From Pseudomonadota bacterium (GTDB lineage: Bacteria > Bdellovibrionota_B > Oligoflexia > Oligoflexales > CAIYRB01): DNA of 64,000 nt. Shown here piece after piece: positions 1 through 17,202 of the stretch. The stretch covers positions 4,175-68,174 of the forward strand of contig JAPLFX010000121.1 in the NCBI GenBank assembly GCA_026390445.1, written 5' to 3'. The notes beneath the pieces were generated by a model. The model was given only the letters and a program-made list of their open reading frames with translations, was not told the DNA's origin and searched no databases. The position numbers and the translations under genes are program-made. The number at the start of each line of letters is the position of its first letter. Positions within the stretch are counted from its first letter, which is position 1.

Positions 1-378
1 CTTTCATTGGTTTGAATCATCAAACCGTCCTCCTAGAACGCAACTGATTGGTTAATCATCGACCGATATAACATCGTTAAACTCAAGGGTACCAAAGCTT
101 CTTTCCAGCGTAGACCAAATGCTGCACAGATCTAAGGCAACGATCCGTCGGATCCGTCCACCCCCCGTGACAAGCGTCCGGGTGATCCTGTACACCGCCA
201 TCACCATACACAAAAGCTGCCCGATAACCTAGAGCATACCGTATAATTGTCTGGCTAAGACCGCAAGTCCGAGCCTACCCCCGCTCAGCTTTTGCCCCGA
301 CCCACCGATAGACCCTTATCAACATCATCACGATCACCACGATCATCACGCCGCGTCGATGTTGCTGAGAGGAGTCGG

Positions 379-1752
379 ATGCACCGCCGCACAGCCCTAA
401 GCATCGCCCTCGTGGGACTTATGGACCTCGCTGCCCCGCTGCAGGCGAGGCCGGCCTTGGACCCAACGGCGGAGTTGGTCGATCAGCAAGAACCCTTGCC
501 AAGCGCCTTAAAACCGCTTGACTACCCGGCTGGACTGAGCATGCCGTGGCGTCTTTTACAGATCGATGCCCTCGACCAAGCCAAGACCACCGCCGCCCTG
601 CAAAGCAGCCAGGCGAAGCTCGCCGCGAGCTGGCTGGGCAAGCCGAGTTCGCTCAGTGCTTTTGTCGGCACGCGCCACGTCATCACTCTAAACAATAAAT
701 TAGTTAGCGATCAGATCCAGACCGGCACACCGACAGAGACCAGCGGTCGCCCTTCGGTGACGGTCGAACCAACGTGGTGCTCGTTGATGGACTATCATCT
801 GTTCTTCGTCACCGTCGCTGACACCAAGCTCAACACGCTGCTCGGTTCGGCGCATGCCGCCATCGCCCGCAAGGCGTGGGCCAAGATGAAGCCGGCACAG
901 CGCGACTCCTACCTCAGCACCAAGCTGCCAGAACTGGCGCGCAGCGCCCTGCAAGAAGCCGCCACCAAGAGCGCGCCAGCGAGCGATGCCTTACACGTCG
1001 GACTCAGTCTGGCGCGAGCCGTGACGCGCAGCGACGAAGGCGCCAGCGCCTGTCTCAATCTCCTCCTCGAACAGCAACTCGCCAGCCGCTACACCGTCGC
1101 CCGCTCCCTCGGCAGCGACCACCTCGCCCTCAGCCGCTGGTTGCTCGACCAGAGCCCAACACCCAGGCGTCCAACGCGCGTGCTGGAGCTCGACTGGACG
1201 CATCCACCCGAAGCGGAGATCGATCGCCACCTACCGACGACATTTACCGTCGATGCCCAGGTCATCGATGCCGTCTATGGCAAACACATTCCCGTGAAGC
1301 TTTCGAGCCAGATCCGCTGCCAGCAAAGCACCGACGGCGGCAACGGCGCCCGCATCGATTGCCAACCCGATCAAGCGATCGGTCGCCTGCTCGACGCTGA
1401 GGCGGCGAGTTTAAAGCTCAGCGACTGGCCACAGGTGGCCAAGGTCTACCGCGCCTGGGTCTACCTCGATCGCGGCCGAGCCTGGGGTCTCAAGATGAAT
1501 GACCGCGTCGTCGCCAGCGTCGATGGCAAGCCGGTGAAGGGACACGTCGTGCAGTTCTATGGCCCAGAGCAAAAGCTCAACTCACCGCGTGGCTTTCCCA
1601 TCCGCGAAGGTGCCATCGTCTACGTGCGACTGAATCAACAACTCGCGCGCAAAGGCATGACCTTTCAGATGGACCCACGGACCTTTCCGACGCCTTACCC
1701 CATCCCGAGCAACGGCGCGGCTGCAAGTGGATCAGGCGCAACCACGCCCTAG
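379..1752 (+). CDS. hypothetical secreted protein
   Basis: ORF 292..1752. An internal ATG at 379 is preceded by GAGAGGAG and followed by a signal-peptide-like MHRRTALSIALVGLMDLAAPLQA. No family recognised. Confidence 0.5.
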   Translation: MHRRTALSIALVGLMDLAAPLQARPALDPTAELVDQQEPLPSALKPLDYPAGLSMPWRLLQIDALDQAKTTAALQSSQAKLAASWLGKPSSLSAFVGTRHVITLNNKLVSDQIQTGTPTETSGRPSVTVEPTWCSLMDYHLFFVTVADTKLNTLLGSAHAAIARKAWAKMKPAQRDSYLSTKLPELARSALQEAATKSAPASDALHVGLSLARAVTRSDEGASACLNLLLEQQLASRYTVARSLGSDHLALSRWLLDQSPTPRRPTRVLELDWTHPPEAEIDRHLPTTFTVDAQVIDAVYGKHIPVKLSSQIRCQQSTDGGNGARIDCQPDQAIGRLLDAEAASLKLSDWPQVAKVYRAWVYLDRGRAWGLKMNDRVVASVDGKPVKGHVVQFYGPEQKLNSPRGFPIREGAIVYVRLNQQLARKGMTFQMDPRTFPTPYPIPSNGAAASGSGATTP

Positions 1753-1771: not shown

Positions 1772-1772
1772 T

Positions 1773-2645
1773 CTACAGCGGTTCGCCCAGCGCTTTCGGC
1801 GCGCGCGATTTACCGACGAATCCGGCCAACACGATGATGGTCAAGACGTAGGGTAAAATCTGGATAAACTGAACTGGCACCTTACCGAGCCCGGCGATCT
1901 CCAGCCCCTGAAGACGGATCTGCACGGCATCAGCAACGGCAAAGAACAAACAGGCAAACAGCGTCGGCAGCGGTCGCCATTTGCCGAGGATCAGCGCGGC
2001 AAGCGCCATGAATCCACGTCCTGAACTCATATTGCGCGAATAAGCGGAGGACAAGAAGATCGACAAACTAGCCCCGCCGCTGCCAGCCAAAGCGCCGGCA
2101 GCAAGGAGCGCGGTCCAGCGCACCCGTGCCACCGACACGCCCGCTGCGGCCAAGGCCTCAGGATGTTCACCAGCGAAGTTTAGCCGCAAGCCGGCCCGGG
2201 TCTTGCCCAGCACCCACCACAGCGCGACCGGTGCGACCAGGGCTAGCCCCATCGGGAAGACGACAAAGCGATGCGCCAACTCGATACTCGGCGTTGAACC
2301 GGTGACGTCATAGAGGATCTTGGCGACAAAGGGCGGAATCCCCGCAGCCAACATGTTGATGCCGGTGGCCGCAACGATTTGATTGGCCTTGAGTGGCAAC
2401 ACGGCCACGCCGTAAAGAGCTGCGAGCAAGATACCGGCCAAACTGCCGCCAGCAAGACCGAGCCACGGCGATCCAGTCGCGAGGGTCACCACCGCGGCGG
2501 CAAAGGCGCCGACCAGCATCTTACCTTCGAGGGCCAAGTTGATGACCCCGGAGCGTTCACTGAGCAAACCGCCCATCGCGGCGAGGAGCAGCGGCGTGGC
2601 GAGACGCAAAGTAGCGGCGGCGAGATCGAGTAGGTGCTCTCCCAT
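1773..2645 (-). CDS. ABC transporter permease (BMP/nucleoside-sugar type, second permease)
   Basis: Polytopic hydrophobic protein in an operon with a duplicated ATPase and a BMP-family binding protein. Start moved to MGEHLL (2645), 2 nt after the upstream permease stop. Confidence 0.7.
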   Translation of the reverse strand: MGEHLLDLAAATLRLATPLLLAAMGGLLSERSGVINLALEGKMLVGAFAAAVVTLATGSPWLGLAGGSLAGILLAALYGVAVLPLKANQIVAATGINMLAAGIPPFVAKILYDVTGSTPSIELAHRFVVFPMGLALVAPVALWWVLGKTRAGLRLNFAGEHPEALAAAGVSVARVRWTALLAAGALAGSGGASLSIFLSSAYSRNMSSGRGFMALAALILGKWRPLPTLFACLFFAVADAVQIRLQGLEIAGLGKVPVQFIQILPYVLTIIVLAGFVGKSRAPKALGEPL

Positions 2646-3733: not shown

Positions 3734-5330
3734 CGCCACGGGAGCCTCCACCCATAAAATGGCCGATCTTGGCCTCGTCGGCCTCGCCGCGCCGGAACTC
3801 CTGGACGATCTTGCCGTCGTAAAAGACGAGGATCCGGTCAGCCAGTGCCATGACTTCTTCCAGGGCCGACGAAATCAGCAGTACCGCAGTGCCGCCGGCG
3901 CGAGCATCGAGGATGCGCTGGTGGATAAACTCGATCGAGCCGACATCGACGCCACGCGTTGGTTGGGCACAGATAAAAAGTCGCGGGTCACCGATAAATT
4001 CGCGGGCGATGATCAGCTTTTGCTGATTACCTCCCGACAGACCCGAGGCGATTTGCTGCTGATCGGCGGGACGCACATCAAAGGCTTTGATCGCTGCAGC
4101 CAAAGCGCTGGTGACCTGACGGCGACGGATGAAACCAAAGCGGCCAAAGCGCGGCATCCGCTGGACACCGAGAAGAAAGTTCGTCCACAGACTCTGCGAA
4201 AGCAGCAGACCCTGCTGGCAGCGATCTTCAGGCACGACGCCGAGGCCCAAGGCCCGCAGGGCTTTTGCACTGAACGAGCTAACATCGCGACCGAGGACGC
4301 TGATCTCACCCCTGGCGGTGATGCGATGACCGCTACTGGCCCGGTGAAGATAACGCCCCGGATCGAGCAACAGTCGCAGCAGATCGGATTGACCATTGCC
4401 CTCAATCCCGGCAATGCCGACAATTTCACCACTGCGCACCACTAGGCTCAAATCGGCGAGCTTGGGCTTTTCGCCGCGCTGACCCATCGTGACCTTCGCC
4501 AGGCGCAGCTGCTCGGCGCCGAGTTTCGGACTCGGCGGCGGTGCGACCTGTAGATGCACGACGCGCCCGACCATCAGCTCGGCCAGCTCAGGCGCCGTCA
4601 TTCCGGCCACGGGCCGCTCGGCCACCGTGGCACCGCGCCGCAGCACGGTGACGTCGTCGGCATAGCGCAGCACCTCACCGAGTTTGTGGGTGATGACGAT
4701 GATCGTCTTACCCTGGTCCTTCAACCGGCATAGGTTGCTGAAAAACTCGTCCACCTCCTGCGGCGTCAGCACCGCAGTCGGTTCGTCGAGGATCAAGATA
4801 TCGACGCCGCGGTACAGCAATTTAAGGATTTCCAGACGCTGCTGCACACCGACTGGGAGCGTCTCGACCGGAACGTCGAGGTCGACTTGGAGGTGATAAG
4901 CCGCCATCAACTCCTGCAAGCGTCGGCGCGCCTGGGACCGATCGATCGGACGCCAAGCAGCCGGCAGCCAGCGCCAAAAACCCTGACTCGGCTCATCGCC
5001 AAGGATGATGTTATCCAGGCCGGTATACGGACCGGCTAGCATAAAATGCTGATGCACCATACCAAGGCCCGCGGCAATGGCGTCACGCGGAGAACGCCAG
5101 GCGCGAGCTTTGCCGTGGATCAATATCTCGCCACAGTCGGGACGGTAAAGGCCGTAGAGCATCTTCATACAAGTGGATTTACCGGCGCCGTTTTCACCAA
5201 CGACCGCGTGCACCGTGCCACGCTCGACGCGGATCGTGACATCGCGATTGGCGACGCATGCCCCGAAGGCCTTCGCGACACCACGCATCTCTACGGCTGC
5301 TGGCTGCGCCACGGCGCGCACTTGGCTCAC
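3726..5330 (-). CDS. ABC transporter ATP-binding protein with two fused ATPase domains
   Basis: Walker A GENGAGKST, Walker B ILILDEPT, a second-domain GIEGNGQS and the LSGGNQQK signature. The GTG start overlaps the upstream stop (GTGA). Confidence 0.85.
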   Translation of the reverse strand: MSQVRAVAQPAAVEMRGVAKAFGACVANRDVTIRVERGTVHAVVGENGAGKSTCMKMLYGLYRPDCGEILIHGKARAWRSPRDAIAAGLGMVHQHFMLAGPYTGLDNIILGDEPSQGFWRWLPAAWRPIDRSQARRRLQELMAAYHLQVDLDVPVETLPVGVQQRLEILKLLYRGVDILILDEPTAVLTPQEVDEFFSNLCRLKDQGKTIIVITHKLGEVLRYADDVTVLRRGATVAERPVAGMTAPELAELMVGRVVHLQVAPPPSPKLGAEQLRLAKVTMGQRGEKPKLADLSLVVRSGEIVGIAGIEGNGQSDLLRLLLDPGRYLHRASSGHRITARGEISVLGRDVSSFSAKALRALGLGVVPEDRCQQGLLLSQSLWTNFLLGVQRMPRFGRFGFIRRRQVTSALAAAIKAFDVRPADQQQIASGLSGGNQQKLIIAREFIGDPRLFICAQPTRGVDVGSIEFIHQRILDARAGGTAVLLISSALEEVMALADRILVFYDGKIVQEFRRGEADEAKIGHFMGGGSRGDD

Positions 5331-6627: not shown

Positions 6628-7371
6628 ATGCAAAAACCAGTTTCATCTAAGCAACCGCAAGTTCAGTTTGGCAAAGGACTTCGAGTCTTCGGTGCGGTGG
6701 TCACCACGCTTGCAGCAACTCTAGCAGGCTGTGGAGGGCTTACGACGCTCAATTTGCGCAGCAAGCCTGCAAGTACTGAACCCGGTAGCAGCGCTCTCAC
6801 AAGCACTGCGGATGCAGCTGCTGCCGCCAAATGCGGGCATAAAGGCGACGGTAAAAAGGCCAAAAAAGGTAAGCACGGACAGAGTGGCTTCGCCCTCGCC
6901 GGAGCGACCGTGGTCACCTATGATGATCAAATTGCTGCGATCCTGAATCAAAGCTGCGTTGGTTGCCACAGTGGGATGGGTAGTTATAGCGGCGCTAAGG
7001 CCGACGGATCTAAGATCGTCAAAAGCGTTGCGAGCGGCAATATGCCCCCTGGCGGCCTGAGCGCTTCAGATAGACAGCTCTTTGCAAGCTGGCAGTCGGG
7101 TGGTTATTTGCAGTCGGCACCTGCGCCAGCACCGGCTCCTGCGCCAGCACCGGCTCCTGCGCCAGCACCGGCTCCTGCGCCAGCACCGGCTCCTGCGCCA
7201 GCACCGGCTCCTGCGCCAGCACCGGCTCCTGCGCCAGCACCGGCGCCAGCGCCAGCACCGGCTCCTGCGCCAGCTCCTGGAACGGGTACGTGCCAAGATG
7301 ACCATGATGCTGATGATGATCATCCACAAAAGGCAGGCGCCCATGCGCCTCACCGTCACAGTCAAGACTGA
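6628..7371 (+). CDS. lipoprotein with a single heme-c motif (planctomycete-cytochrome-c-like), Ala-Pro repeat and His/Asp-rich tail
   Basis: Lipobox LAGC. CVGCH (CxxCH) is followed by GNMPPGGLSASDRQLFASWQSGG, resembling the PSCyt1-type domain pattern. This is followed by 27 AP dipeptides and a C-terminal DDHDADDDHPQKAGAHAPHRH. Confidence 0.6.
   Translation: MQKPVSSKQPQVQFGKGLRVFGAVVTTLAATLAGCGGLTTLNLRSKPASTEPGSSALTSTADAAAAAKCGHKGDGKKAKKGKHGQSGFALAGATVVTYDDQIAAILNQSCVGCHSGMGSYSGAKADGSKIVKSVASGNMPPGGLSASDRQLFASWQSGGYLQSAPAPAPAPAPAPAPAPAPAPAPAPAPAPAPAPAPAPAPAPAPAPAPAPAPAPAPGTGTCQDDHDADDDHPQKAGAHAPHRHSQD
7117..7278 (+). repeat. in-frame tandem repeat encoding (Ala-Pro)x27
   Basis: The 18-bp unit gcgccagcaccggctcct occurs as six consecutive perfect copies at 7123..7230, followed by variants. 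Total length is 162 nt (54 codons), counted codon by codon. Confidence 0.95.
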
Positions 7372-7419
7372 TTGTTGCAGCTGGCTCGTCTAGGGCCGCT
7401 GCTTCAGCCAAAAACCAAA

Positions 7420-7460
7420 ACATAAAAGTCTCCTTGGCCACCCCAGGGGGACTTTTATGT
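7420..7460 (-). terminator. intrinsic terminator downstream of the host tRNA 3' fragment
   Basis: Stem ACATAAAAGTC (7420..7430) / GACTTTTATGT (7450..7460), extendable by 3 further pairs. On the minus strand it is followed by TTTTGGTTTTTGG. It lies 47 nt 3' of the CCA end at 7507. Confidence 0.6.
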
Positions 7461-7506
7461 CTTGATGACTTCTGTGCTGAGCAATGCAAACTGTGCGTCG
7501 ATCAGA

Positions 7507-7552
7507 TGGCGGTCGCGAGTGGAATCGAACCACTATCTGAGCTTTAGGAAAG
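7507..7552 (-). pseudogene. 3' fragment of split host tRNA-Arg(CCU), with junction core (attR-like)
   Basis: The minus strand reads CTTTCCTAA-AGCTC-AGAT-AGTGG-TTCGATT-CCACT-CGCGACC-G-CCA. There is no matching 5' acceptor strand upstream. It pairs perfectly with the 5' fragment at 17202..17165. Confidence 0.8.
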
Positions 7553-7990
7553 AAGCGTTATATCCACCCGGTATATGGCAGGGAGAGCGGCGTAAGGCAA
7601 GGCTTTTGGCCTCGGTGCTGCTTCCGTGCGACACCGTCGATGGCTTTTTTGTTGTGAGCCGAGCTGAGGGCCAGACGCCGGCGTGGGAGGTTCCCCAAGC
7701 CAGCCAGAGACGTGAAATCCCTTAATAATCTTTACGGAATAAAGTGGCTTAGTTTGATTTTTTTTAAAAAAATATATACCAATAAAATCAACTGATTAAA
7801 CTCGAGCCGAGTTCCGGCCCGTTCTTGGAGCCGAAAGGGTTCGCCCGCCCGGCTCACAAGCGGCATCATTGCGGCTGGTCAGCCTCAGACAAAGGTCTGT
7901 AATTAAGGTGACATGCAAGTAAAATCTCAAGAAATTCCTGGAAATTCCGAAGAGTTTATGCAAGACTAGGCTTGCCAGTTCGGGGATATT

Positions 7991-8263
7991 ATGAGTCAGG
8001 CCGCAAAAAATTCTAACCAACCTAGTCGCTTGGAGCGGAAGGCCCTGAGCTTTTTCCGTCGCACAAGGGGCATTTCCGATCTGCTGCCGATATACCGGGA
8101 GGCGATGGCGACGTACCCTGGACTGGGCGAGGATGCGGCCTTGGAGGCACTCTACACCTCCTGCGTAGCTGCCGAGCGTCGGCAAGCGGCCGACGTAGGC
8201 GACACCGCTACCTCGGAAGAGTTGGCAGGCATCGGCCGTTTAATCACCCTTCAGTCTCCGTGA
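7991..8263 (+). CDS. hypothetical protein (possible antitoxin partner)
   Basis: 90-aa ORF ending 12 nt upstream of the next ORF. Opposite strand to the rest of the element. GGGGATATT lies before the ATG. No family recognised. Confidence 0.35.
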   Translation: MSQAAKNSNQPSRLERKALSFFRRTRGISDLLPIYREAMATYPGLGEDAALEALYTSCVAAERRQAADVGDTATSEELAGIGRLITLQSP

Positions 8264-8275
8264 GTTCGGCAATCG

Positions 8276-8635
8276 ATGGCTGCAGCTTGGGATATTTATT
8301 GGCCTAAATCCGGCACCAAGTTCCTGATGGATCAGTCCGGCCGGGATCATATGATGCTAGTGGTCGGGGACCCTTACAGGTTCGGGGGTTATCCCTTTTT
8401 CCCCTTCATCCCGATTTCGCACACCCGTGCCGCTAATTACTGCGTGGCGCTGGCGGAAGCCGATGTCGCCCCCACTCAGGGCAGTCTTGGCGTCTCCAAT
8501 AGCTCTCATGCCTTATGCGGGTTGATTTTCACCGCCCGGGGTGACCAGTTCGGTACCCTGGTCGGCAAATTGACGAATAAAGCCAAAAAAGACGATATAT
8601 TAGAGGCGTTATCCAATCGGCTGGGGCTACTATAG
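8276..8635 (+). CDS. hypothetical protein, possible PemK/MazF-fold toxin
   Basis: 119 aa. The spacing pattern (W.IYW ... GRDHMMLVVGDP ... FIPISHT ... CVAL ... LCGLIFT ... GKL ... ILEALSNRLGLL) resembles the PemK/MazF architecture. By-eye only. Confidence 0.35.
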   Translation: MAAAWDIYWPKSGTKFLMDQSGRDHMMLVVGDPYRFGGYPFFPFIPISHTRAANYCVALAEADVAPTQGSLGVSNSSHALCGLIFTARGDQFGTLVGKLTNKAKKDDILEALSNRLGLL

Positions 8636-8647
8636 TCGATTCGACGC

Positions 8648-10276
8648 TCAGATCTCGCCCATATCCCTAATGTTTTGGGCCACCGGCTTACGGGCTTTCG
8701 CCCGTCGGCCCCGCAGTGGCCGCGTGCCGGACGCTGGGGCGGAGAGCCGCAGGCTCGGAGCCGTAGCGGTAGGCTCCGGACTGTGGCTCTTATAGCCATC
8801 ACAGTTAGTGCCCGCAGAGCTACCGACGTAGTCCAGCTCAAGCTGTTCTTGGACAATGCGTAGGGTATCGCCTAAGTGCTCGGCGAGCTGGTCAACGAGG
8901 TCCATATTGGCTGGAGCAGCGTGAACCATCCTCACCAATGCGACCAGTTTTTCGGCAGTGGTCCTTTGATCCATTGCGAGCAGGTGCTTATGGAGGTCTG
9001 CGATTCCTTCGCTGAGCACCGACCAAATTGGCCGATGTTCAGCACCTTCCGCCCGGAAGCCAAGGCCGATAAGGCCTGTCGAGGCTTCCCGGTCAGCTAG
9101 GTCCCTGGCACGGCGGTCGACGCTTTCAGACCAGAGTGCGAATAAGCCATCGCAGAGTTCTGACCACGGGACTAGCCGCTGGTGAGCAGCCGCAAGGAGG
9201 GCCAGCTGACGGTTGTGGAAGTTGGTGAGGGCATCGTGCAGAGTCAGTCGACCCGGCGTGGCTTTCGATTGTTTCTTTTCTGGTTCTTTGTCGGCCGCCA
9301 TGGTGGTCGCGGGGATTTTTTTGGCCTCGGTGCGGAATGGAGGCATCGCCATGGCCTCAGCGAATCTTATGGATGTCGGCCAGCGATTAGTCTTGGTCTT
9401 TTTGCTGACGTTGGTATTGGCGTTCGCTGGGCACTCTCGCACCGTCCGGCGTTGCGTCCACAGGTCAAAAAGCAGCGACGCTGACAACGTGCCGCCATAT
9501 AGGGCCGTCGTGACGGCACGCAGCGGTTGCTTGCCACTCATTCCTATCTCCAGCCTGGTGACGTCTTGGTCCTCCGGAACGCCATCTTTCTGCCACCGGG
9601 CAGTATGGGCCGCCAGGACATCGACGTCTTTGCACGCATTGTCCAGCCAACGCCTTTTAGAGTAAATGCGAAGTAGCCAAGCTCCCCGCGGTCCGGCAAG
9701 CCACACGCTGTTGTATTGGTTAAGAGGTGTGACTTTGTCACCCATGAACGGCCAGAATATTCGCTCTGACGGGAGGGGTAGGACATTGCGGGCGTTGATG
9801 GCGTTGCCAGCAAACTCCCGCATGGCCTCGGCCTGAGTGACATGGGCTTTCAGTGCGAAATGTTGGTGAAGAGCCAAGGCCATAGCCTTAATGATGTCCA
9901 GACCCGCCTTGTCGTCATACTGGAGCAGGGCCCAAAACTTGCCGTTAAAATCGATGCGAGTGCCGTGGGGTTCCACGGCGACGAAAATGCCGTTGTCTGT
10001 CTGGTAGGCTGGCGTATTCCCAGGGAGACGTTTCAGAGCGAGGCCCAATACTCGCCGTAGCTCGTCACCCGGGTCACCTGCATACCGGCTACGTATGAGC
10101 TTGGGGACGACGATGCGGAGGTTGTCGAAGTGCGGGACAGCTAGCGGGTGGTCCAGAGGCAAAGGCGGCAAGGTGGCAACGACTGGCGTCTGCCGACCAG
10201 CTTCACGGATAGCCCCTCGGGCGGCCCTGCAGGGCCGGCGTTTAGGGCGAGCCTTTTTTGCCTTGGCCCTTCCCAT
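8648..10276 (-). CDS. replication initiation protein (Rep_trans/RepSA-like rolling-circle initiator)
   Basis: The ordered motifs HGTRIDFNG, LLRIYSKRRW and VTRLEIGMSGKQ resemble the RID / RxYdK / tRxE blocks of replication initiation factor (PF02486-type) proteins. Basic N-terminus. Confidence 0.55.
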   Translation of the reverse strand: MGRAKAKKARPKRRPCRAARGAIREAGRQTPVVATLPPLPLDHPLAVPHFDNLRIVVPKLIRSRYAGDPGDELRRVLGLALKRLPGNTPAYQTDNGIFVAVEPHGTRIDFNGKFWALLQYDDKAGLDIIKAMALALHQHFALKAHVTQAEAMREFAGNAINARNVLPLPSERIFWPFMGDKVTPLNQYNSVWLAGPRGAWLLRIYSKRRWLDNACKDVDVLAAHTARWQKDGVPEDQDVTRLEIGMSGKQPLRAVTTALYGGTLSASLLFDLWTQRRTVRECPANANTNVSKKTKTNRWPTSIRFAEAMAMPPFRTEAKKIPATTMAADKEPEKKQSKATPGRLTLHDALTNFHNRQLALLAAAHQRLVPWSELCDGLFALWSESVDRRARDLADREASTGLIGLGFRAEGAEHRPIWSVLSEGIADLHKHLLAMDQRTTAEKLVALVRMVHAAPANMDLVDQLAEHLGDTLRIVQEQLELDYVGSSAGTNCDGYKSHSPEPTATAPSLRLSAPASGTRPLRGRRAKARKPVAQNIRDMGEI

Positions 10277-11588
10277 GGTGGTCGCCGCCCTTAAAAAAAT
10301 CTGGATTATATGGACCCCGGAACTTTATTAATTGATTGTTTTCATGGAGGAAAAACACCCCACGCGGCATTGGCTCTCGGGCTGCCCTGTCGCTTTGCAC
10401 CAGGGTCCGGGCCATGGCATCGCGGTATCGTCCGACTACCTTCCATGACAGACCATCGAGCTCGATGGCCAGTGCTCCGGCTGCAGGGTCTTGCACGCCA
10501 ATAAGACAGTGCCTCGATATCGCACGGTACTTCCGGAACCAGGCTCCTACGGTGTCGATAAGCTGGGCGTAGGTTTGCTCCAGATCGTTCCAAGGCTTCT
10601 CCTGGGTCGGGCGGCGGAGCGGCCTCAGGTAGTCTTTGGCCTCGTCACACACCAGCACCCACCTGGGATGGGTCTCGGGCGATACGATGCCGAGCCGGTA
10701 CAAGTCCTCGATGTGCTCAACATGGTGGGCGTCCAGGAGGTCGAGGAGGGCGGCGGCGGTAGCGTTCAACTCCGCCAAAAGTTGCTGGAGAGACGCCATG
10801 TCCGAGGGCTTGAAGGCATTGAACACCTGCGTTCCCGGGATTCGGCGGAACAGAGCCAAGTGCTTGGTGGAAATAACCACGATCCGGACGGACGGCGTCG
10901 TCTTCACCACCGACGTCAAGTACATCGCAATCCATGCCGACTTCCCGGATCCTGATGGAGCGATGATAGCGGCGGCCGGGTCATCGGCCAGCCGGCGGGT
11001 CAGTGGCGTGAGACGCTCCGATATTCCTAGAAAGGCGGTGAACGGCTCCATATCACGAGGCATTGCCGACAAATCGACAGCGTCGGGCACCGTGGCTGCA
11101 TGGAAGCGGAAGACCCGAGGGTCTTTATCATCTGCCGTACAGTCGTAGAACCAGGTGCCCCAACTGCCGGACCATAAATCCAGCTCGTCCCGGAGCTTCT
11201 GGCGTTTTACCCCGTGGGGGAACGTAACTCGGAGGGTGGCTTTCCGGACCTTGGATCGTCCGACCGTAATGCTTTCCCATTTGGCGATTGGGTATATCCA
11301 CTCACGGACGGCGGCGTTCTTCGGGGACAGGACCTCACGTTGCGATGCATAATTGTGCAACTCGTAGAATTCGTGACGCAGGTACTTGCGGCGGTAGTGA
11401 CGATAGAGGGAGCAACATGCCAGGGCAGGCAGGGTGAGGATTTTGATGGTGGACCTTGGATACCTGATGGCGAGAACAGTCGCCAAGCCGGCGATGACCC
11501 ACAATCCGAAATCATCGAGCGTCCCGCAGGCGGCCGAGGAGAGACCCCAGGCATGAACTGGCGGGATTTTGCAGATGATGTGTGTCAT
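10242..11588 (-). CDS. membrane-anchored P-loop ATPase, FtsK/SpoIIIE/TraB-like DNA translocase
   Basis: N-terminal hydrophobic segments, Walker A IIAPSGSGKS and Walker B WVLVCDEA. Strong RBS GAGGAGGAGG before the ATG at 11588. Confidence 0.5.
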   Translation of the reverse strand: MTHIICKIPPVHAWGLSSAACGTLDDFGLWVIAGLATVLAIRYPRSTIKILTLPALACCSLYRHYRRKYLRHEFYELHNYASQREVLSPKNAAVREWIYPIAKWESITVGRSKVRKATLRVTFPHGVKRQKLRDELDLWSGSWGTWFYDCTADDKDPRVFRFHAATVPDAVDLSAMPRDMEPFTAFLGISERLTPLTRRLADDPAAAIIAPSGSGKSAWIAMYLTSVVKTTPSVRIVVISTKHLALFRRIPGTQVFNAFKPSDMASLQQLLAELNATAAALLDLLDAHHVEHIEDLYRLGIVSPETHPRWVLVCDEAKDYLRPLRRPTQEKPWNDLEQTYAQLIDTVGAWFRKYRAISRHCLIGVQDPAAGALAIELDGLSWKVVGRYRDAMARTLVQSDRAAREPMPRGVFFLHENNQLIKFRGPYNPDFFKGGDHHGKGQGKKGSP

Positions 11589-11614
11589 GGGTACCTCCTC
11601 CTCGGATGTGCGGG

Positions 11615-11917
11615 CTAGGGTCGCCGGTAGACCTTGGTGACCGTGTGGAAATCGTTTTCCAGGCGGCTAATCTCGTCGTCGCCATCAACGAAAAATCCGT
11701 CACCCCGCCAGTCATGGGTCGGCGGTGGCGACACAGAAGCCAGCCACGCTTCGGCTGACTGCATAGGACGTAGATAAAGGTTCACGAGTGCGAGGGCGGC
11801 GGCGATGGTGGCGATTCCCGGTGGCGTGCCGATGGCGTTAGGACACCCACGACGCACCAGCCGCACACCGCCACCATAGGACCTGACGAACCGCCCCAGC
11901 ACTTCGTGCTCGTTCAT
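11615..11917 (-). CDS. hypothetical small membrane protein
   Basis: 100 aa with one hydrophobic segment (GIATIAAALALVNLYL). RBS GGAGGGAGG before the ATG. Start overlaps the stop of the upstream ORF. Confidence 0.5.
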   Translation of the reverse strand: MNEHEVLGRFVRSYGGGVRLVRRGCPNAIGTPPGIATIAAALALVNLYLRPMQSAEAWLASVSPPPTHDWRGDGFFVDGDDEISRLENDFHTVTKVYRRP

Positions 11918-12249
11918 GGCTTGCCTCCCTCCGCTGGCCTTTTCGCCGGCGTCGTGGCGGTGGTCGCCCCAGGCAGAATTTCCAAGATTCGACCGTAGAG
12001 GGCGGTTTGAGTGCCGCTGACGACGTAGGCACCGATTTCCACCCGCAAGGTTTGCACGCCTTTAGGCACCTCAACGGCGGACTTGAAACGCTCGACGGTC
12101 CGTTCCTCGAAAATTTCGTCCGACCCTGGGATGGTACGGACGTTCGTGCCTTCAAAAGCAACGAGGAATGGCGGTTGGTCTTTCTCGGCCTTGTCATTTG
12201 GGGAAGTGCCGAGGACACGGATGGTCATGATGACTGTAGCTTTCTTCAT
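11914..12249 (-). CDS. hypothetical protein
   Basis: 111 aa with AAAGG upstream of the ATG. Same strand and translationally coupled to the downstream ORF. No family recognised. Confidence 0.5.
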   Translation of the reverse strand: MKKATVIMTIRVLGTSPNDKAEKDQPPFLVAFEGTNVRTIPGSDEIFEERTVERFKSAVEVPKGVQTLRVEIGAYVVSGTQTALYGRILEILPGATTATTPAKRPAEGGKP

Positions 12250-12596
12250 GGTGTTACCTTTCAGAATGTTTTGCGTTGATGAATTGCGTTTGTGGCTAGA
12301 TGGATTCCGGTCGGATCATTGGCGGTTGGGCACGGCCCTCCTTTATGAGCCCAGGGAAATGGGGTGGGTGACATGCTGATAAGGTACCGAGATCCAAGTG
12401 CGGCGATTTAGGGGGGGTGGACAGCAAGATGGTCGCACGATCCGTAACCAAGATAAGTATTTGAAATAACGGGACATGTAGGAGATTGGCCCGCGGCCGA
12501 TGGGGAGGGCGTCACCCCCCTCTCGCAGCGGGATGACTGGTTTTGCGGCTGCCAGGAGCCAGACGGGCGATGCCATCTGACTCCGCTGACGGTGAT

Positions 12597-12869
12597 TTAT
12601 GCAGCCGCCCGGCGAGCAATGGACTCAACGACGACCTTCAGGCGTCCCGATTTTCTATCAACGGAGATGCGGCCCGCGCAGGTAAGGTCGACTTCACCGA
12701 CGACCAGACCGGCAGACGCCTTCACCAGTGCCCAAGTGGCCTCTTGTGTAGCGATGCCGTCGTAGCCTGCCCCTTTCAGGACGATAAAGGCGGACAGCCA
12801 TTCAGCGTTCTTGGTTTTATCCAAGCGGATGACTTTGATGACGGAGAATGATGCGGTCACTTGGTTCAT
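12597..12869 (-). CDS. hypothetical protein
   Basis: Start set to MNQVTASF (ATG at 12869) because of the RBS GAGGAAATT directly upstream. 90 aa. No family recognised. Confidence 0.45.
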   Translation of the reverse strand: MNQVTASFSVIKVIRLDKTKNAEWLSAFIVLKGAGYDGIATQEATWALVKASAGLVVGEVDLTCAGRISVDRKSGRLKVVVESIARRAAA

Positions 12870-13158
12870 AATTTCCTCGTGATTGAGTGTTGGCTGGGCG
12901 TTCTGCCCTCGCAAGAATGGGGCAGACGCAGCTAGCCAACTGGAGCGACGTCAGCCAGGCGGATTGCTCCGGCATACGTGCTGCAGGGAGGCTATATCCA
13001 CGGCGTCTGTAAAAGATGAAGTGGCCCCCGGAGGCACGGAGGCTGGTCATGGAGCTGGCGCTGACGAGCGGACGAGGGAGGAAATGGCTGCAAAACCGGG
13101 CCAGAGAGGCGTCGTGAGTACCCCTAACGGGTAATTTGCAGGCCAAGAACACATCGGA

Positions 13159-13533
13159 TCAGCTGTTAACGGTGATCCGTGGTCGGGAGTTTGCCCATGT
13201 TATCAGGTCAGCAATGTAGCTGGCCCTTCTGGTCTGCGGGTTCTGTGAAATGATACTGCCGAATGCCCCTGCGCGCAGGTGGATCTTGCTGTTTTTAGGG
13301 CCGAGGTGATTAATCAATATGATGGGTTTACCAGAACCCTGGAGGTAAGCACGTGCACGGTACGTTTTGCCGTTGAGTGTCCGAATCAGCTGCCCGTTAA
13401 ACGCTAGTTGGTTGAAGACGGTGCGGAACATTGATACCTCGCGTTTTGATAAGGCCGTGATGATGCCGTTGCGCCGTGTTGAATAAGGGCGTCCTGAGTT
13501 TGTCGTCTGAGGGCGAAATCCGGGCGAAATCAC
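13159..13533 (-). CDS. hypothetical protein
   Basis: ORF of 124 aa overlapping the upstream stop. An alternative start at 13431 (MFRTVF) has the RBS GAGGTATCA. No family recognised. Confidence 0.4.
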   Translation of the reverse strand: MISPGFRPQTTNSGRPYSTRRNGIITALSKREVSMFRTVFNQLAFNGQLIRTLNGKTYRARAYLQGSGKPIILINHLGPKNSKIHLRAGAFGSIISQNPQTRRASYIADLITWANSRPRITVNS

Positions 13534-13802
13534 CGTTTGCTATGGATACGTCGTTTCGGAGCAAATGTGTCCTTTGCACTTTCTTCCCCATGCATAGCAA
13601 CGTGGTAGGCGATATTTCGCACTAACTCCCTGTTGTGGAGCAACAATAGTGCCAAACCTCCGCCACACATTTCCTTGGAAACAGCCTTGATAATCGCCTT
13701 ACGGATGTCACGCTGTTGCCACAATTGCCTCACTTCACCAAGTCGGTCGGCCAATTCGTCGATTCGCTCCTCGGTCGACTTCTGTCTTTTCGTCGCCCCC
13801 AT
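13530..13802 (-). CDS. hypothetical protein
   Basis: 90 aa with a strong RBS GGAGGATCC before the ATG. Charged, helical-looking N-terminus. No family recognised. Confidence 0.5.
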   Translation of the reverse strand: MGATKRQKSTEERIDELADRLGEVRQLWQQRDIRKAIIKAVSKEMCGGGLALLLLHNRELVRNIAYHVAMHGEESAKDTFAPKRRIHSKR

Positions 13803-13902
13803 GGATCCTCCTTCGTTTGATTAGAATTACGATATTATTGCGGTCCCGGGTCAGCATTAAGGACTGATAGTGGAATAGGGCATTTCGCGTGCGAGGCGGC
13901 GG

Positions 13903-14247
13903 TCACCACAGCTCCCACCAGACCGGCTTTTTGCCGCTAACTCGCTTTATTATCCCAATGTGAGCCAGCACCGGGCCTAGATGGGATAGGTGGCGTGGGG
14001 TAAGCCCCCCTGGTTTATGAGTTTGCACGAAGTCGCCAAGTGAGCCTGCCGGTGGTGCGTCCTCGCTCATTCCGGGCTTAAGCTTTTTGGCTTGGGCGAG
14101 TTTCGTCGCCTGTTCGATGATAATTCTCACGGAGTCCCAGGACACTATTTTGATAGATTGACCGTAAATGATTGTTACGCCGGCCGTAGCGTCAATCTCG
14201 GTGTCAAATCCCTCGCCCATGGCCGTTTGTAATTGAACTTTTGGCAT
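13903..14247 (-). CDS. hypothetical protein
   Basis: 114 aa with RBS GGGGAGATC upstream of the ATG. No family recognised. Confidence 0.45.
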   Translation of the reverse strand: MPKVQLQTAMGEGFDTEIDATAGVTIIYGQSIKIVSWDSVRIIIEQATKLAQAKKLKPGMSEDAPPAGSLGDFVQTHKPGGLTPRHLSHLGPVLAHIGIIKRVSGKKPVWWELW

Positions 14248-14334
14248 CGATGATCTCCCCGCGTCCTAGGTCGCCAATGGCACCACATTCAGCGTTCAAC
14301 ATTCAGCGTTCAACTGTGGTCCTGACACGGAGTC

Positions 14335-15579
14335 CTAAAAGGCGGCACAATGATAGGTCCCGACCCAGTTCGTCGTATAGTAGCTCGGACTATCAACTTC
14401 CATTGTGGTGCTCCCAAGATTCGTTACCACCGCCGTAGCGAATTTATATTGGTGATAGGTAGTGCTATTGATAGTGCAAGTGGTGGGAATGCCTGTCGCC
14501 ATATCACTGGCAAACGTCCCTGGCCATGGGTTTTGACCATTCCCGTTCTGGATCGTATATCCAGACGGCAGTGTCGGGTACGTAACCGTGAATTTGTAGT
14601 CATTGTTGGTCGCGACCGTACTCCCCACGGCATCGATAGCACTCACGCATGCATAGTAGGTCCCTTGCGTTAACGCCGTAAGTAGCTGCGTGACGGCCGT
14701 TGTGCTGTATGTTTGCGAGGGCGACGAGCAGTCGGAGTTCGAACTCACAGTGACCGAGTATGAGCCAGCCCCGTTGGCGGTGCCCCACGTCAACGTCGGT
14801 GTTTGGATCGTCGATACAGCGGTGCCCGAACTCACCGAGGTGACACTGAAGCTGCCAGGGGCAAGACTCACGGTAAATGCAAAGGGACTGTTCGCCGCGG
14901 TCAGCGTCGTCGAGCCGGATGTAGCAGTGACGCAGGAATAGTAACTGCCGGCGGTTAACGTAGTGAGGACCTGCGAGGTAGAGGTCACCGCCGTGTACGA
15001 CTGACTAGGACTACTACAATCCGAAGCTGCCGAAAGAGAGACACTGTAGGTAACCGTCGCTGTCGAAGGCGTAGGCGTTGAAGCTCCCCAGGTGACAGTA
15101 GGCGTCGCCGTGGTCGTCGCTGTAGCTGGGGCGGTGATGCTAAATGCTGCCAATTTCGGTGCGGCAGCCGTTAGAGTGACCGTGAATGCGAATGGGCTGT
15201 TGGTCGCAGCGAGGGTGGTCGACCCGGAGGTAGCGGTAACGCACACGTAGTAACTACCTGCCGTCAAGGCTGTCAGTGCTTGCGTGGTGGTCGTCACCGC
15301 GGTGTATGTCTGACTTGGACTACTGCAGTCGGATTTTGCTGAGGCCGAGACGTTATATACTACCGTAGCGCTTGATGGTGTCGGAGTTGCAGCTCCCCAG
15401 GTGACCGTTGGCGTTGCCGTGGTGATGGCGGCAGCCGGGGCGGTGATGCTGAATGCGGCAAGTGACGGAGCAGCGGCGGTAGGTGTGGCGGCAGTCGGAC
15501 TTGTAGCAGGCGATGGACCCTTGGACGATCCGCAAGCAGGCAACATGGCTATTAGCATGACCGTCGAGAGGCATTTCAT
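14335..15579 (-). CDS. lipoprotein with three tandem Ig/FN3-like repeats and a distinct C-terminal domain
   Basis: Signal peptide plus lipobox (MLPACGSS). RBS AGGAGGATC. Three ~100-aa units each contain TWG ... Y.V..S..SDCSSPSQ.Y ... LT.LT.G.YY.CV.A ... F.FTV. Confidence 0.7.
   Translation of the reverse strand: MKCLSTVMLIAMLPACGSSKGPSPATSPTAATPTAAAPSLAAFSITAPAAAITTATPTVTWGAATPTPSSATVVYNVSASAKSDCSSPSQTYTAVTTTTQALTALTAGSYYVCVTATSGSTTLAATNSPFAFTVTLTAAAPKLAAFSITAPATATTTATPTVTWGASTPTPSTATVTYSVSLSAASDCSSPSQSYTAVTSTSQVLTTLTAGSYYSCVTATSGSTTLTAANSPFAFTVSLAPGSFSVTSVSSGTAVSTIQTPTLTWGTANGAGSYSVTVSSNSDCSSPSQTYSTTAVTQLLTALTQGTYYACVSAIDAVGSTVATNNDYKFTVTYPTLPSGYTIQNGNGQNPWPGTFASDMATGIPTTCTINSTTYHQYKFATAVVTNLGSTTMEVDSPSYYTTNWVGTYHCAAF
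14575..15471 (-). repeat. three tandem ~300-bp intragenic repeats
   Basis: Approximate unit boundaries: aa 37-137 and 138-238 are near-identical, and aa 239-335 is diverged. This corresponds to 15471..15169, 15168..14866 and 14865..14575. Confidence 0.7.
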
Positions 15580-15791
15580 GGGAGATCCTCCTAGTTGTTA
15601 CTATCGACACCGAAATACGCCTCGGCACGATAGCCACGAAGCCTTAGCCATTTTTGGCAACTCGTGAGCAAGGACATTTATTCCAGTTGGTTGCGTGCGA
15701 AGCTGCAAGACCCGTCTGTTCCCAGACGGTCCGGATGGGCTTGGGCTCGGATCGACGGGATGCCCGTAGCTGGCGGGAATTAACTAAAGGA

Positions 15792-15866
15792 TGGCGGTCC
15801 CAGCAGGACTCGAACCTGCAACTGAGCTTTAGGAAAGCCCCGGTATATCCCTTTACCTATGGGACC
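15792..15866 (-). tRNA. tRNA-Arg (anticodon CCU), element-borne, CCA encoded
   Basis: 75 nt: GGTCCCA-TA-GGTA-AAGGGATA-TACC-G-GGGCT-TTCCTAA-AGCTC-AGTT-GCAGG-TTCGAGT-CCTGC-TGGGACC-G-CCA. All four stems pair. A small hairpin at 15712..15729 lies downstream. Confidence 0.85.
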
Positions 15867-15872
15867 TTACGG

Positions 15873-17042
15873 TCATGCGATGTCGTCCAAGTCTCTGTCC
15901 GCTTCGTCACGTTCTTTATCGCCAGGCGACCTAGCGTACAGAATCGTCGTCGACACCAAGGAATGCCTAAAATGACTCTTTGCGAGCATTATGTCGATAT
16001 TTTTCGTCCGTAGCAGCCAGAGACACGAGCTGCGGCGGAGGTCGTGCGGGGTCACGTTGAGGAGCGGGCGGACGTCCCTCGTATAGACCTTGTCATAATG
16101 CCCCCTTGTCCAGCTCCAGATGGGACCAGCCGGCAAGGTCTTCAGAATGTCGACGATCAGCTGGGCGGCGGTCATGTCCCAGATGCAGACATACTCGCGT
16201 CGGTATTGGTTCTTAACCTCCTCCTCTTCGCTGGCAATCTTGGCCCGTTCGACGCTGATAATCAGTTTACTGCCCATATCATAGCGTTTAAAGCCAGTAT
16301 AGGTTTCGCACTGGCTGGCGTTTTTGTTGCCGGTCAGGAAGTCCTTATGATGAAGTCCCGTGAATTCGCTCGGCGACAGCCCGCCAAAATAGCCGCACAG
16401 GACACCCAGAGCTGCCAACGGACTCTTGGCCAGCAGGGCACGAGCGGTTTGGAGGGCGGCCTCGGGATCGACTCTAACCTTGAGCGGGGTTTCTTTAACA
16501 TAATTGGCCGAGGGGATGTCCAGAATCCATGGTTGGCTGATTTTTTCCTTCTTGGCCAGCCAGCGTCCGAAATTATTGAGCAGCCACAGGATTTTTTTTA
16601 CGGAGCTGATGTCTAGCGTGCCCCGCCGTGTCTCCTGGCTCAGCAAATAGACGGGAAAGTCGGCGATTTGGTGCCGCCACTTGCGGACGTTTTTGAGACC
16701 GTGAATACCGATGAAGTAGGGCAGGATATAAACGGCCCAGGCATCGTGGGTGTCCCTCATCGTGACATCCTTGACGCCTCGCATGAGCTGATATTCTTTC
16801 GTAAAGGCAGCCCAGCAGCTCGATAGATCGTCGCCCTGGCGGAGCTGGTATCGTTGCACCCGGTGGACGGCTACGCCGTGGGCATTCTCCCAGTCCCGAA
16901 CCCACTCGGTTATACGATCGTCATCAAGGTCATCCAGGTGCCGACATTCAGCCCTCGGCACCTGCACATTTTTCTTGGCGATGGTGTCATAGTAATAAAC
17001 CGTCACCAGTTTCGAGCCGCGTCTCCTGGTCCAGCAAGCCAT
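15873..17042 (-). CDS. tyrosine-type site-specific recombinase/integrase
   Basis: C-terminal HDLRRS (HxxR) and RHSLVSTTILY (H...Y) boxes. The box I region reads GGLSPSEFTGL. RBS GAGAGGGA. Adjacent to the tRNA and to the split-tRNA junction. Confidence 0.75.
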   Translation of the reverse strand: MACWTRRRGSKLVTVYYYDTIAKKNVQVPRAECRHLDDLDDDRITEWVRDWENAHGVAVHRVQRYQLRQGDDLSSCWAAFTKEYQLMRGVKDVTMRDTHDAWAVYILPYFIGIHGLKNVRKWRHQIADFPVYLLSQETRRGTLDISSVKKILWLLNNFGRWLAKKEKISQPWILDIPSANYVKETPLKVRVDPEAALQTARALLAKSPLAALGVLCGYFGGLSPSEFTGLHHKDFLTGNKNASQCETYTGFKRYDMGSKLIISVERAKIASEEEEVKNQYRREYVCIWDMTAAQLIVDILKTLPAGPIWSWTRGHYDKVYTRDVRPLLNVTPHDLRRSSCLWLLRTKNIDIMLAKSHFRHSLVSTTILYARSPGDKERDEADRDLDDIA

Positions 17043-17164
17043 AATCGTCCCTCTCGTAGAGTGCGACGCTTCTTTTCGGCAATAAATTCAACGACCTTAG
17101 CATCATCCAAACTGCATCCGCTGCCGCCGCTGTAATCATTGACTAATTCAGCCAACTATAGGCC

Positions 17165-17202
17165 TTAGGAAAGCCCTGTTCTATCCGTTGAACTACGCAA
17201 CC
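17165..17202 (-). pseudogene. 5' fragment of split host tRNA-Arg(CCU), with junction core (attL-like)
   Basis: The minus strand reads GGTTGCG-TA-GTTC-AACGGATA-GAAC-A-GGGCT-TTCCTAA (38 nt), after which the sequence cannot complete the acceptor stem. Confidence 0.8.

Follow-up and report, generated by a model that had tools for sequence, protein, structure and literature searches.

Introduction

The question raised by the locus described here is what becomes of a tRNA function when the host gene that supplies it has been interrupted by an integrated element and is rebuilt at neither end of that element. In the window, by which is meant the whole 64-kb stretch of DNA that was analysed, the host gene for tRNA-Arg(CCU) is found in two pieces on the minus strand, with 9.6 kb of other DNA between them (Table 1). 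An earlier note on this DNA had read the two pieces as halves of one gene, split within its anticodon loop by a site-specific insertion through a short core and regenerated at neither junction, and had concluded that the host was left merely with two dead halves. The first part of this interpretation is borne out by the results given below; the conclusion of mere gene loss is not, because a complete cognate tRNA-Arg(CCU), which the note had overlooked, is present on the element itself, 6 nt after its integrase gene. The locus is very probably a case of disruption and replacement of the kind known as tRNA-dependent lysogeny, in which the 9.6-kb element splits the host gene and brings its own copy.

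Results

The split gene and its empty site

When the two pieces (38 and 37 nt) are joined directly, ARAGORN folds them into a 75-nt tRNA-Arg(cct) in which every stem is paired, with one G-U pair in the acceptor stem. The same 75-mer (75/75 positions identical) exists as an intact gene at 392..318 of L111, a closely related metagenome contig that was located via a homologue of the cyclase (P0010). It lies there between the same two neighbours as in the window, a gene for a 7TMR-DISM adenylate/guanylate cyclase and one for a lipoprotein with a CxxCH heme motif, both of which the earlier note had named correctly. The intact gene scores 61.8 bits against the Rfam tRNA model (gathering score 29), so that the covariance-model check of the joined halves and the search for an uninterrupted gene between the same neighbours in a related genome, which the note had suggested, both came out in favour of a split gene. 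The 247-aa sequence of the heme lipoprotein had no exact match on record, and an exact 29-mer across the joined tRNA had no match among the genome contigs searched.

With L111 as the empty site, the insertion point is the anticodon loop of tRNA-Arg(CCU). The flanks of L111 match the window at 82% on the attL side and at 85% on the attR side, and these alignments share exactly the 9 bp of the core CTTTCCTAA, the 9-mer that had been proposed as the crossover region. The core is present at both junctions (17173..17165 at attL); 0.24 copies are expected by chance in the whole window. A third copy, absent from the earlier note, is found at 15829-15837. The host side of attL is identical to L111, and divergence starts directly after the core, from which point attL reads GGCCTATAGTTGGC... 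and is not tRNA-like. ARAGORN calls no tRNA at either junction in the window, and the Rfam tRNA model scores only 18.7 bits (E=7.6) at attL, with no match at attR. The hairpin and U-run that had been noticed 3' of the 3' half fold at -30.4 kcal/mol (z = -4.63); a simple terminator scan overlooked them because the loop of the hairpin is long.

Other relatives retain the gene. In a second one (L112) the synteny ABC-Bmp-tRNA-Arg(CCU)-cyclase is kept with the gene intact, and in four further related MAGs an intact tRNA-Arg(CCU) lies beside Bmp, without an integrase of the window element's family. The closest MAG by Bmp (L023, 95% identity) has a contig that stops 127 nt upstream of Bmp.

Table 1. 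Features of the interrupted tRNA-Arg(CCU) locus, with positions in the window
Feature	Position	Strand	Remarks
Intrinsic terminator of original host tRNA gene	7410..7462	-	long hairpin + U-run; kept in empty-site contig L111
3' half of host tRNA-Arg(CCU)	7507..7543	-	anticodon 3' strand, variable loop, T arm, acceptor 3' strand, CCA; identical to L111
Core CTTTCCTAA at attR	7544..7552	-	crossover region, spans anticodon loop
Element side of attR, left arm of attP	7553..7575	-	GGTGGATATAACGCTT, with TGGATATAAC at 7566..7557
Inserted element	7553..17164	-	9,612 bp without the duplicated 9-bp core; borders from L111 alignment
Cargo, ORFan, 542 aa	8648..10276	-	no family matches
Cargo, P-loop ATPase, 448 aa	10242..11588	-	weakly FtsK/SpoIIIE-like
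Cargo, predicted lipoprotein, 414 aa	14335..15579	-	three T/S/A-rich repeats of ~95 aa; no family matches
Element-borne intact tRNA-Arg(CCU)	15792..15866	-	ARAGORN; Rfam tRNA 58.2 bits; 6 nt past int stop codon
Divergent lambda-type tyrosine integrase (predicted), 389 aa	15873..17042	-	HDLRR...H-R-H...Y catalytic motifs
P' arm of attP, core to int start codon	17043..17164	-	GGATG at 17119..17115 and 17108..17104
attL, 5' half of host tRNA-Arg(CCU)	17165..17202	-	acceptor 5' strand, D arm, anticodon 5' strand and loop

The integrase and its attachment site

The int gene of the element is assigned to the tyrosine integrases by its sequence and its modelled structure, and its product is predicted to recombine attP with attB. 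It matches the PHROG integrase family phrog_1 (E=5.5e-11) and reaches only 16.6 bits against Pfam Phage_integrase, while the profile of its own family matches XerA (4a8e, E=1e-5). An AlphaFold model (pLDDT 77) predicts the fold of these enzymes: its best PDB match is lambda Int (1z1b_A, E=8e-7), and lambda Int, XerA, IntI, Cre and Tn1549 Int are the best matches of the predicted structure. The HxxR, H and Y motifs are invariant in the alignments, in which the window integrase has Ser at the usual position of the box-I Arg and could therefore be impaired. No sequence match to it was detectable among 50,697 deposited phage genomes. Its family comprises roughly 150 clusters.

Alignment of the attP regions of the integrase family gives the consensus TGGATATAAC-N4-CTTTCCTAA. 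The left arm, which resembles the part of a tRNA from the D loop to the anticodon stem, is the conserved core-type site of the family, with GGATR at -14 from the core in every family attP examined. On the other side of the core, GGATR motifs are found at +54 to +82 in 10/10 of the family attP regions examined, and the GGATG motifs in the P' arm of the window element are putative arm-type sites of the integrase. The same arrangement of motifs is seen in the reconstructed attP of the window, which lies about 120 nt before int. This attP does not contain the 3' segment of the tRNA, and the layout is thus not the classical regenerating one.

The element-borne tRNA

The complete tRNA-Arg(CCU) on the element is the only tRNA that ARAGORN or Rfam finds in the window. 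It has in common with the host gene the 19-nt anticodon stem-loop GGGCTTTCCTAAAGCTCAG, while the acceptor, D and T arms differ. Among the element tRNAs of the integrase family, compensatory changes occur in 19/23 pairs. Prediction of sigma-70-like promoters gave none for the element tRNA, and simple promoter and terminator scans around int and the tRNA gave nothing informative.

Two other readings of the attachment sites were considered and rejected. Use of the element tRNA itself as attP would give two chimeric tRNAs, whereas the real junctions match the separate motif upstream of int. A tandem arrangement, in which the tRNA in the middle would be a hybrid att site between two elements, is contradicted by the pairing of the acceptor strands of that tRNA with each other, and by the presence of the int-tRNA pair in non-integrated phage contigs as well.

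A cassette common to the integrase family

The same cassette is found in 15 of 16 related integrase loci, mostly on phage contigs and with a GC content of 38-59%. A short attP (TGGATATAAC-N4-CTTTCCTAA) precedes int by 90-133 nt, and a tRNA-Arg follows it after 6-48 nt; this layout, with the att motif before int and the tRNA after it, is seen in 9/9 database homologues as well as in viral and metagenome loci. The integrases of these loci are only 32-40% identical, and the median identity of the tRNAs is 64%. One relative (L001) lies inside a phage contig with terminase and portal genes. In a scan of viral contigs for the attP motif, three loci (L012-L014) with no family integrase nearby were taken as chance matches, and a fourth (L015) proved to be the same contig as L011 rather than a separate locus.

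Two further loci, L018 and L107, are attL junctions in which a host 5' half is followed by int and then by a different intact tRNA-Arg(CCU); neither ARAGORN nor Rfam finds a tRNA at the attL of L018. In all three of the integrated cases, including that of the window, one strand bears the host 5' half together with int and the element tRNA. The anticodon of the attP core agrees with that of the carried tRNA, also in L110, which has the core ATTTCTAAT (UCU) and carries a tRNA-Arg(TCT). In the closer branch of the family (tier 1), nearly all members have the tRNA in a fixed place immediately behind int, whereas the more distant tier 2 (L113 and L115) and L020 have the classical layout, with the 3' part of a tRNA in attP and no tRNA gene.

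The remaining genes of the element

Searches of the cargo genes against Pfam, PHROGs, NCBIfam, PDB and a phage database gave nothing usable beyond a weak FtsK-like signal in the 448-aa ATPase (PHROG 1358, FtsK/SpoIIIE-like, E=1.2e-5; EccCb domain, E=8e-4; weak Pfam AAA matches). This protein, which has no match among PDB sequences, is possibly a DNA translocase. The 542-aa ORFan is the sole member of its kind among 5.8 billion proteins, and the gene for the 414-aa lipoprotein also lies directly after the tRNA in an independent assembly, L010. Neither phage structural or lysis families nor matches to phage genomes were found in the 9.6-kb element. It is possibly a satellite or a remnant, or else a small element that is conjugative or mobilisable. 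Since the element has no recognisable phage genes, the term lysogeny may not strictly apply to it.

Discussion

The presence of a complete cognate tRNA 6 nt after int, together with the int-tRNA linkage in 15/16 related loci, identifies the arrangement as one of disruption and replacement, rather than an unprecedented failure to repair the target. In the proposed mechanism, a lambda-type integrase would recombine the short attP with the host tRNA-Arg(CCU) gene, and the crossover would fall within the core in the anticodon loop. Because this attP lacks the tRNA's 3' half, attL and attR are both left without a tRNA and the host gene is destroyed, and the complete tRNA behind int would supply the same decoding function. 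The element tRNA would thus be expressed and would compensate for the lost host gene. Its transcription after integration is probably driven by the captured promoter of the host tRNA; this is proposed because in every integrated case the element tRNA and int share a strand with the host 5' half. The element is presumably still mobile.

Three other explanations of the locus must be weighed against this one. The window comes from a metagenome-assembled genome, and an assembly or binning artefact might have fused phage-like DNA to a host tRNA locus in a chimeric contig. This is extremely improbable, given that no base differs between the window and the independent Logan assembly L010 in attL, in int, in the tRNA or in the 414-aa gene, that the same core stands at both junctions with host sides that match the two sides of one intact L111 gene, and that the same type of junction occurs in two unrelated samples (L018 and L107). 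An insertion that simply kills the gene, with wobble reading by tRNA-Arg(UCU) or another gene copy sufficing for the host and the element tRNA being incidental, would agree with the absence of a tRNA from both junctions. It would also agree with the fact that many bacteria can do without tRNA-Arg(CCU), since AGG is read by tRNA-Arg(UCU) as well, and for this reason the host may not really depend on the element tRNA. Simple loss is nevertheless very unlikely in view of the intact cognate tRNA next to int, of a linkage that is kept despite the divergence of the integrases, of the tRNAs and of GC content, of a carried anticodon that tracks the attP core even in the UCU case, and of the lack of a tRNA in those family members whose attP regenerates the target.

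The element tRNA might instead serve mainly the element itself, by decoding AGG or by evading anticodon nucleases of the host, in which case its match to the target would be a by-product of attP ancestry. Element ORFs use AGG 3.4 times as often as host ORFs (10.5 per 1000 codons, compared to 3.1 for a set of 30 host ORFs; Fisher p=2e-6). Translation of the element's own genes may therefore be a further, or even the actual, use of the tRNA, and anti-defence roles of phage tRNAs have been discussed (PMC10865867). As the main explanation this is unlikely, since it accounts neither for the absence of the tRNA from members whose attP regenerates the host gene nor for its being tied to int and not found with the late or structural genes; the self-serving and replacement roles are in any case compatible with each other.

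A broader reading may be put forward, though only tentatively. An unannotated branch of tyrosine integrases, below the Pfam curated cut-off and missing from deposited phage genomes, may be permanently tied to a portable cassette of short attP, int and tRNA-Arg. This cassette would move among phages and non-phage elements in hosts of 38-59% GC and would, on integration, bring int and the replacement tRNA under control of a promoter captured from the host tRNA that it destroys, and repeated rounds of integration may turn over the tRNA-Arg genes of the hosts. The resident tRNA-Arg(CCU) genes of the related MAGs are closer to the element tRNA (60-63/75) than to the split host gene (53-58/75); no leftover tRNA halves were found near these resident genes as a trace of past replacement.

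The locus provides a clean natural example in a Bdellovibrionota-like lineage, in which an occupied site, its empty counterpart and free forms of attP are all documented, and it points to a whole integrase sub-family built around the disrupt-and-replace strategy. The compact attP-int-tRNA cassette (~1.5 kb) is a ready candidate for building integration vectors whose retention is selected for by the vector itself. For annotation, the target gene can be predicted where an int gene is followed at once by a tRNA and a copy of the anticodon loop of this tRNA lies about 120 nt upstream. The mapping of islands by a regenerated tRNA and a displaced fragment has a blind spot for such elements.

Comparison with known systems

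tRNA-dependent lysogeny was shown experimentally in mycobacteriophages by Guerrero-Bustamante and Hatfull (mBio 2024; PMC10865867), with the actinobacteriophages Fionnbharth (K4), LeBron (L), Gaia (X) and others as examples, and this defining study asked how common it is beyond actinobacteriophages. The likeness to the window extends to a tyrosine integrase with arm-type sites (putative here), an attB in a host tRNA gene, an element-encoded tRNA with the same anticodon, and a common core (8-17 bp in actinobacteriophages, 9 bp here) so short that no tRNA is rebuilt. In both cases there are also integrase-family relatives that have the 3' part of the tRNA in attP (43-50 bp in actinobacteriophages) and no tRNA gene. 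The tRNA lies downstream of int in Gaia, as in the window; that of Fionnbharth, unlike those of the tier 1 elements, is located elsewhere and has a promoter of its own. The targets differ (Lys-UUU, Ile2-CAU and Leu-CAA in actinobacteriophages; Arg-CCU here, and UCU in one relative), as do the hosts, an actinobacterium in the one case and a Bdellovibrionota-like MAG in the other. The window element lacks phage genes, and its integrase, without a sequence match among the 50,697 deposited phage genomes, is new relative to those systems.

Outside Actinobacteria, prophage-like sequences of Sinorhizobium meliloti replace a host tRNA gene that they inactivate (PMC11476347; restated in PMC12429752), and the prophage Lj965 of Lactobacillus johnsonii is cited as a similar case (PMC10865867). 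In these descriptions, which are bioinformatic, integration inactivates the host tRNA and an element-borne isoacceptor substitutes for it; other tRNAs and integrases are involved, and no conserved attP-int-tRNA cassette is described, which sets them apart from the present family. Classical tRNA-targeting elements (P4-like, HP1, L5 and pSAM2-type; the sublocation classes of Williams 2002) likewise cross over in the anticodon loop with anticodon-stem symmetry, and have, as here, an int gene that adjoins attP and a displaced tRNA fragment at the far end. Their attP contains the tRNA from the crossover to its 3' end, so that the gene is restored at attL, whereas that of the window has similarity only on the 5' side, from the D loop to the anticodon loop. 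The window locus is very probably a further example of tRNA-dependent lysogeny, in which the integrase family and the target tRNA are both new, the host is Bdellovibrionota-like and the element is not phage-like in appearance.

The split host gene and its empty counterpart

An element with a short attP and a predicted tyrosine integrase has recombined into the anticodon loop of a host tRNA-Arg(CCU) gene, which it splits without rebuilding, and it brings a cognate tRNA of its own. The two minus-strand halves that an earlier note had assigned to this gene were confirmed exactly. Joined, they give 75 nt which ARAGORN folds as tRNA-Arg(cct), with all stems paired and one G-U pair in the acceptor, and the 9-mer CTTTCCTAA is present at both junctions as described. 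No tRNA is regenerated there: ARAGORN calls none at attL or attR, and in Rfam attL scores no more than 18.7 bits (E=7.6) and attR has no match. The proposed terminator downstream of the 3' half folds into a strong hairpin with a U-run (-30.4 kcal/mol, z=-4.6), and the flanking genes encode, as had been stated, a CxxCH lipoprotein and a 7TMR-DISM cyclase.

The empty site was recovered in L111, an ENA contig found via its cyclase homologue (P0010, 91% identical). Its intact tRNA-Arg(cct) equals the in-silico join at 75/75 positions (Rfam 61.8 bits), and its flanks align to the window at 82% on the attL side and 85% on the attR side. The two alignments share the 9-bp core and nothing more, which sets the insertion at 7553..17164 (9,612 bp) with one core duplicated in addition. 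In the more distant locus L112, whose cyclase is 67% identical, gene order is conserved as ABC transporter, Bmp, tRNA-Arg(CCU), cyclase, and the tRNA gene is unbroken and matches the host gene at 69/75 positions. Four more MAGs from this Bdellovibrionota-like clade carry an uninterrupted tRNA-Arg(CCU) at a distance of 140-240 nt from Bmp, in an orientation relative to Bmp that varies among them; no integrase of the present family was found in these four. With a join that passes Rfam and an intact gene in relatives lacking the family integrase, the insertion stands as originally proposed. In the heme lipoprotein beside the site, Ala-Pro is repeated about 30 times in a row; the opposite strand there holds a spurious 156-aa ORF containing EPVLAQ repeats, and the repeat region is also present in the L111 orthologue.

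Coordinates of features in the window and in related loci
Locus	Feature	Position	Strand	Remark
Window	host tRNA-Arg(CCU), 5' half	17202..17165	-	
Window	host tRNA-Arg(CCU), 3' half	7543..7507	-	
Window	389-aa ORF, predicted integrase	17042..15873	-	
Window	element tRNA-Arg(cct)	15866..15792	-	
Window	third CTTTCCTAA copy	15829-15837		
Window	414-aa predicted lipoprotein	14335-15579	-	first cargo gene after tRNA; signal ...LPAC
Window	542-aa ORF	8648-10276	-	very basic N-terminus; overlaps end of FtsK-like ATPase gene
Window	heme lipoprotein	6628-7371	+	
L111	intact tRNA-Arg(cct)	392..318		
L024	resident tRNA-Arg(CCU)	4069-4143		
L025	resident tRNA-Arg(CCU)	7758-7832		
L026	resident tRNA-Arg(CCU)	1753-1827		
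L028	resident tRNA-Arg(CCU)	1260-1334		
L018	element tRNA	1402-1478		
L110	attP region	285-350		core ATTTCTAAT
L110	carried tRNA-Arg(UCU)	1595-1669		
L020	tRNA 3' part in attP	1034-1103		Arg-CCG-like
L113	tRNA 3' part in attP	about 2320-2390		Val-CAC-like
L115	tRNA 3' part in attP	about 2270-2330		Gly-GCC-like

The element-borne tRNA

The window holds three copies of CTTTCCTAA, against a chance expectation of 0.24. The third, which the earlier note overlooked, is the anticodon loop of an intact tRNA-Arg(cct) (58.2 bits) that lies within the insertion, on the strand of the split gene and 6 nt past the stop of the 389-aa ORF, and is the sole tRNA found in the whole window by ARAGORN and Rfam. 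It has a 19-nt anticodon stem-loop in common with the host gene, but the acceptor, D and T arms differ. The split of the host gene is real and precisely mapped, but its description as an unrepaired kill does not hold, since the element supplies a cognate tRNA that would take over the lost function. tRNA-Arg(CCU) is often dispensable. The element tRNA may additionally serve translation of the element's own genes, because these are enriched in AGG (10.5 per 1000 codons in element ORFs versus 3.1 per 1000 in host ORFs; 3.4-fold, Fisher p=2e-6); GC content is ~0.54-0.60 in the element versus 0.60-0.65 in most host genes of the window. Promoter prediction gave no sigma-70-type candidate for the element tRNA. 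In 3/3 integrated cases the host 5' half, int and the element tRNA share one strand, so transcription from the captured promoter of the host tRNA may run through int into the element tRNA.

The element tRNAs of the family are diverse, with 47-86% pairwise identity, and compensatory changes in 19/23 pairs keep the cloverleaf; they are therefore selected genes rather than att relics. The resident tRNA-Arg(CCU) genes of the four related MAGs resemble the element tRNA (60-63/75) more than the split host gene (53-58/75). Element copies could have replaced host tRNA genes in the past, but a search near resident tRNA-Arg genes of related MAGs turned up no remaining tRNA halves.

A fixed cassette and its variants

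Genomic context was recovered for all nine protein relatives of the integrase and for viral and metagenome loci, several of which are clearly phage contigs that include terminase and portal genes (L001). The tRNA-Arg gene starts 6-48 nt past the int stop in 15/16 distinct loci, and every locus has a conserved site, TGGATATAAC-N4-CTTTCCTAA, at 90-133 nt before int; an inverted TATCCA is frequently present ~10 nt beyond it, and one to three more GGATR motifs occur between core and int. The attP reconstructed from the window (7575..7553 + core + 17164..) follows this layout, so that non-integrated contigs show attP where the window shows attL and attR. This attP-int-tRNA cassette is unusually fixed.

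Two further loci begin in a host gene. L018 opens with the entire 5' half of a different host tRNA-Arg, which continues into non-tRNA sequence, with no tRNA detected by Rfam at the junction, followed by int and an intact tRNA-Arg(CCU). The latter was missed in an Rfam gathering-threshold run on three pooled sources and scores 64.1 bits when searched alone, a filter effect that counsels caution over empty tRNA searches. The host 5' fragment at the start of L107 matches the tRNA resident in MAG L026 at 30/30 positions, and is followed by int and a different tRNA-Arg(CCU). In L110 an altered attP core accompanies a tRNA-Arg(UCU) in place of CCU, so that the carried anticodon follows the target, which appears to have switched to the usually essential AGA/AGG reader. 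L020 and two loci of tier 2, the more distant branch (L113, L115), have upstream of int a tRNA part from the anticodon stem-loop to CCA, and no tRNA gene nearby, which is the classical regenerating design; the several tRNA types involved imply that the wider integrase family targets several tRNAs.

Integrase, activity and cargo

Pfam places the 389-aa ORF below cut-off (16.6 bits), PHROGs identifies an integrase (E=5.5e-11), and the family profile matches the XerA structure. Full-length lambda integrase is the best structural match to the AlphaFold model of the ORF (pLDDT 77), followed by XerA, IntI, Cre and Tn1549 Int, and the family alignments show no variation in the HxLRR, RH and Y motifs, all of which points to a tyrosine integrase. 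The box-I Arg position ('LRPxE', Int residue about 223) is Ser in the window (alignments A1, A4, A5) and Gly in five close relatives from apparently intact phage contigs; most members of tier 1, the closer branch, have Arg there, as do all of tier 2. Either the Ser/Gly integrases function without the canonical Arg-I or another residue stands in. A word-indexed protein search gave nine relatives (32-36% identity) and a full HMM scan 148 clusters at E<=1e-30; the window integrase has no detectable sequence match to any deposited phage genome.

Two perfect cores and a full-length int make it probable that the element is still active. In the Logan contigs L010 and L107 (1-31 in both), exactly 30 nt stand ahead of the first attL base that is specific to the element. 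Logan assembly uses k=31, and such starts are as expected from a graph branch between occupied attL and empty attB, which suggests mixed occupied and empty populations in both samples.

The cargo comprises the 414-aa lipoprotein, a weakly FtsK-like ATPase, the 542-aa ORFan (nothing else like it was found in 5.8 billion proteins) and small ORFs without assigned function. The lipoprotein has three T/S/A-rich repeats of ~95 aa, each with two cysteines, and no family match; it may be a surface protein delivered by the element. The cargo has no match in phage databases, and the element is possibly non-phage.

Comparison with known systems

In tRNA-dependent lysogeny a tyrosine integrase uses an attB within a tRNA gene and a core of 8-17 bp, integration does not restore the tRNA, and related phages whose attP is long carry no such tRNA (PMC10865867); the phage-encoded cognate tRNA is needed for lysogen survival (PMC10865867; Guerrero-Bustamante & Hatfull, mBio 2024). 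Bioinformatic parallels are prophage-like sequences of S. meliloti (PMC11476347, PMC12429752) and Lactobacillus johnsonii Lj965 (cited in PMC10865867). The window element shares four of the defining features and belongs to this already published design. It extends the design, possibly to a non-phage element, and to an integrase family, a target (tRNA-Arg CCU/UCU) and a host lineage that are new to it.
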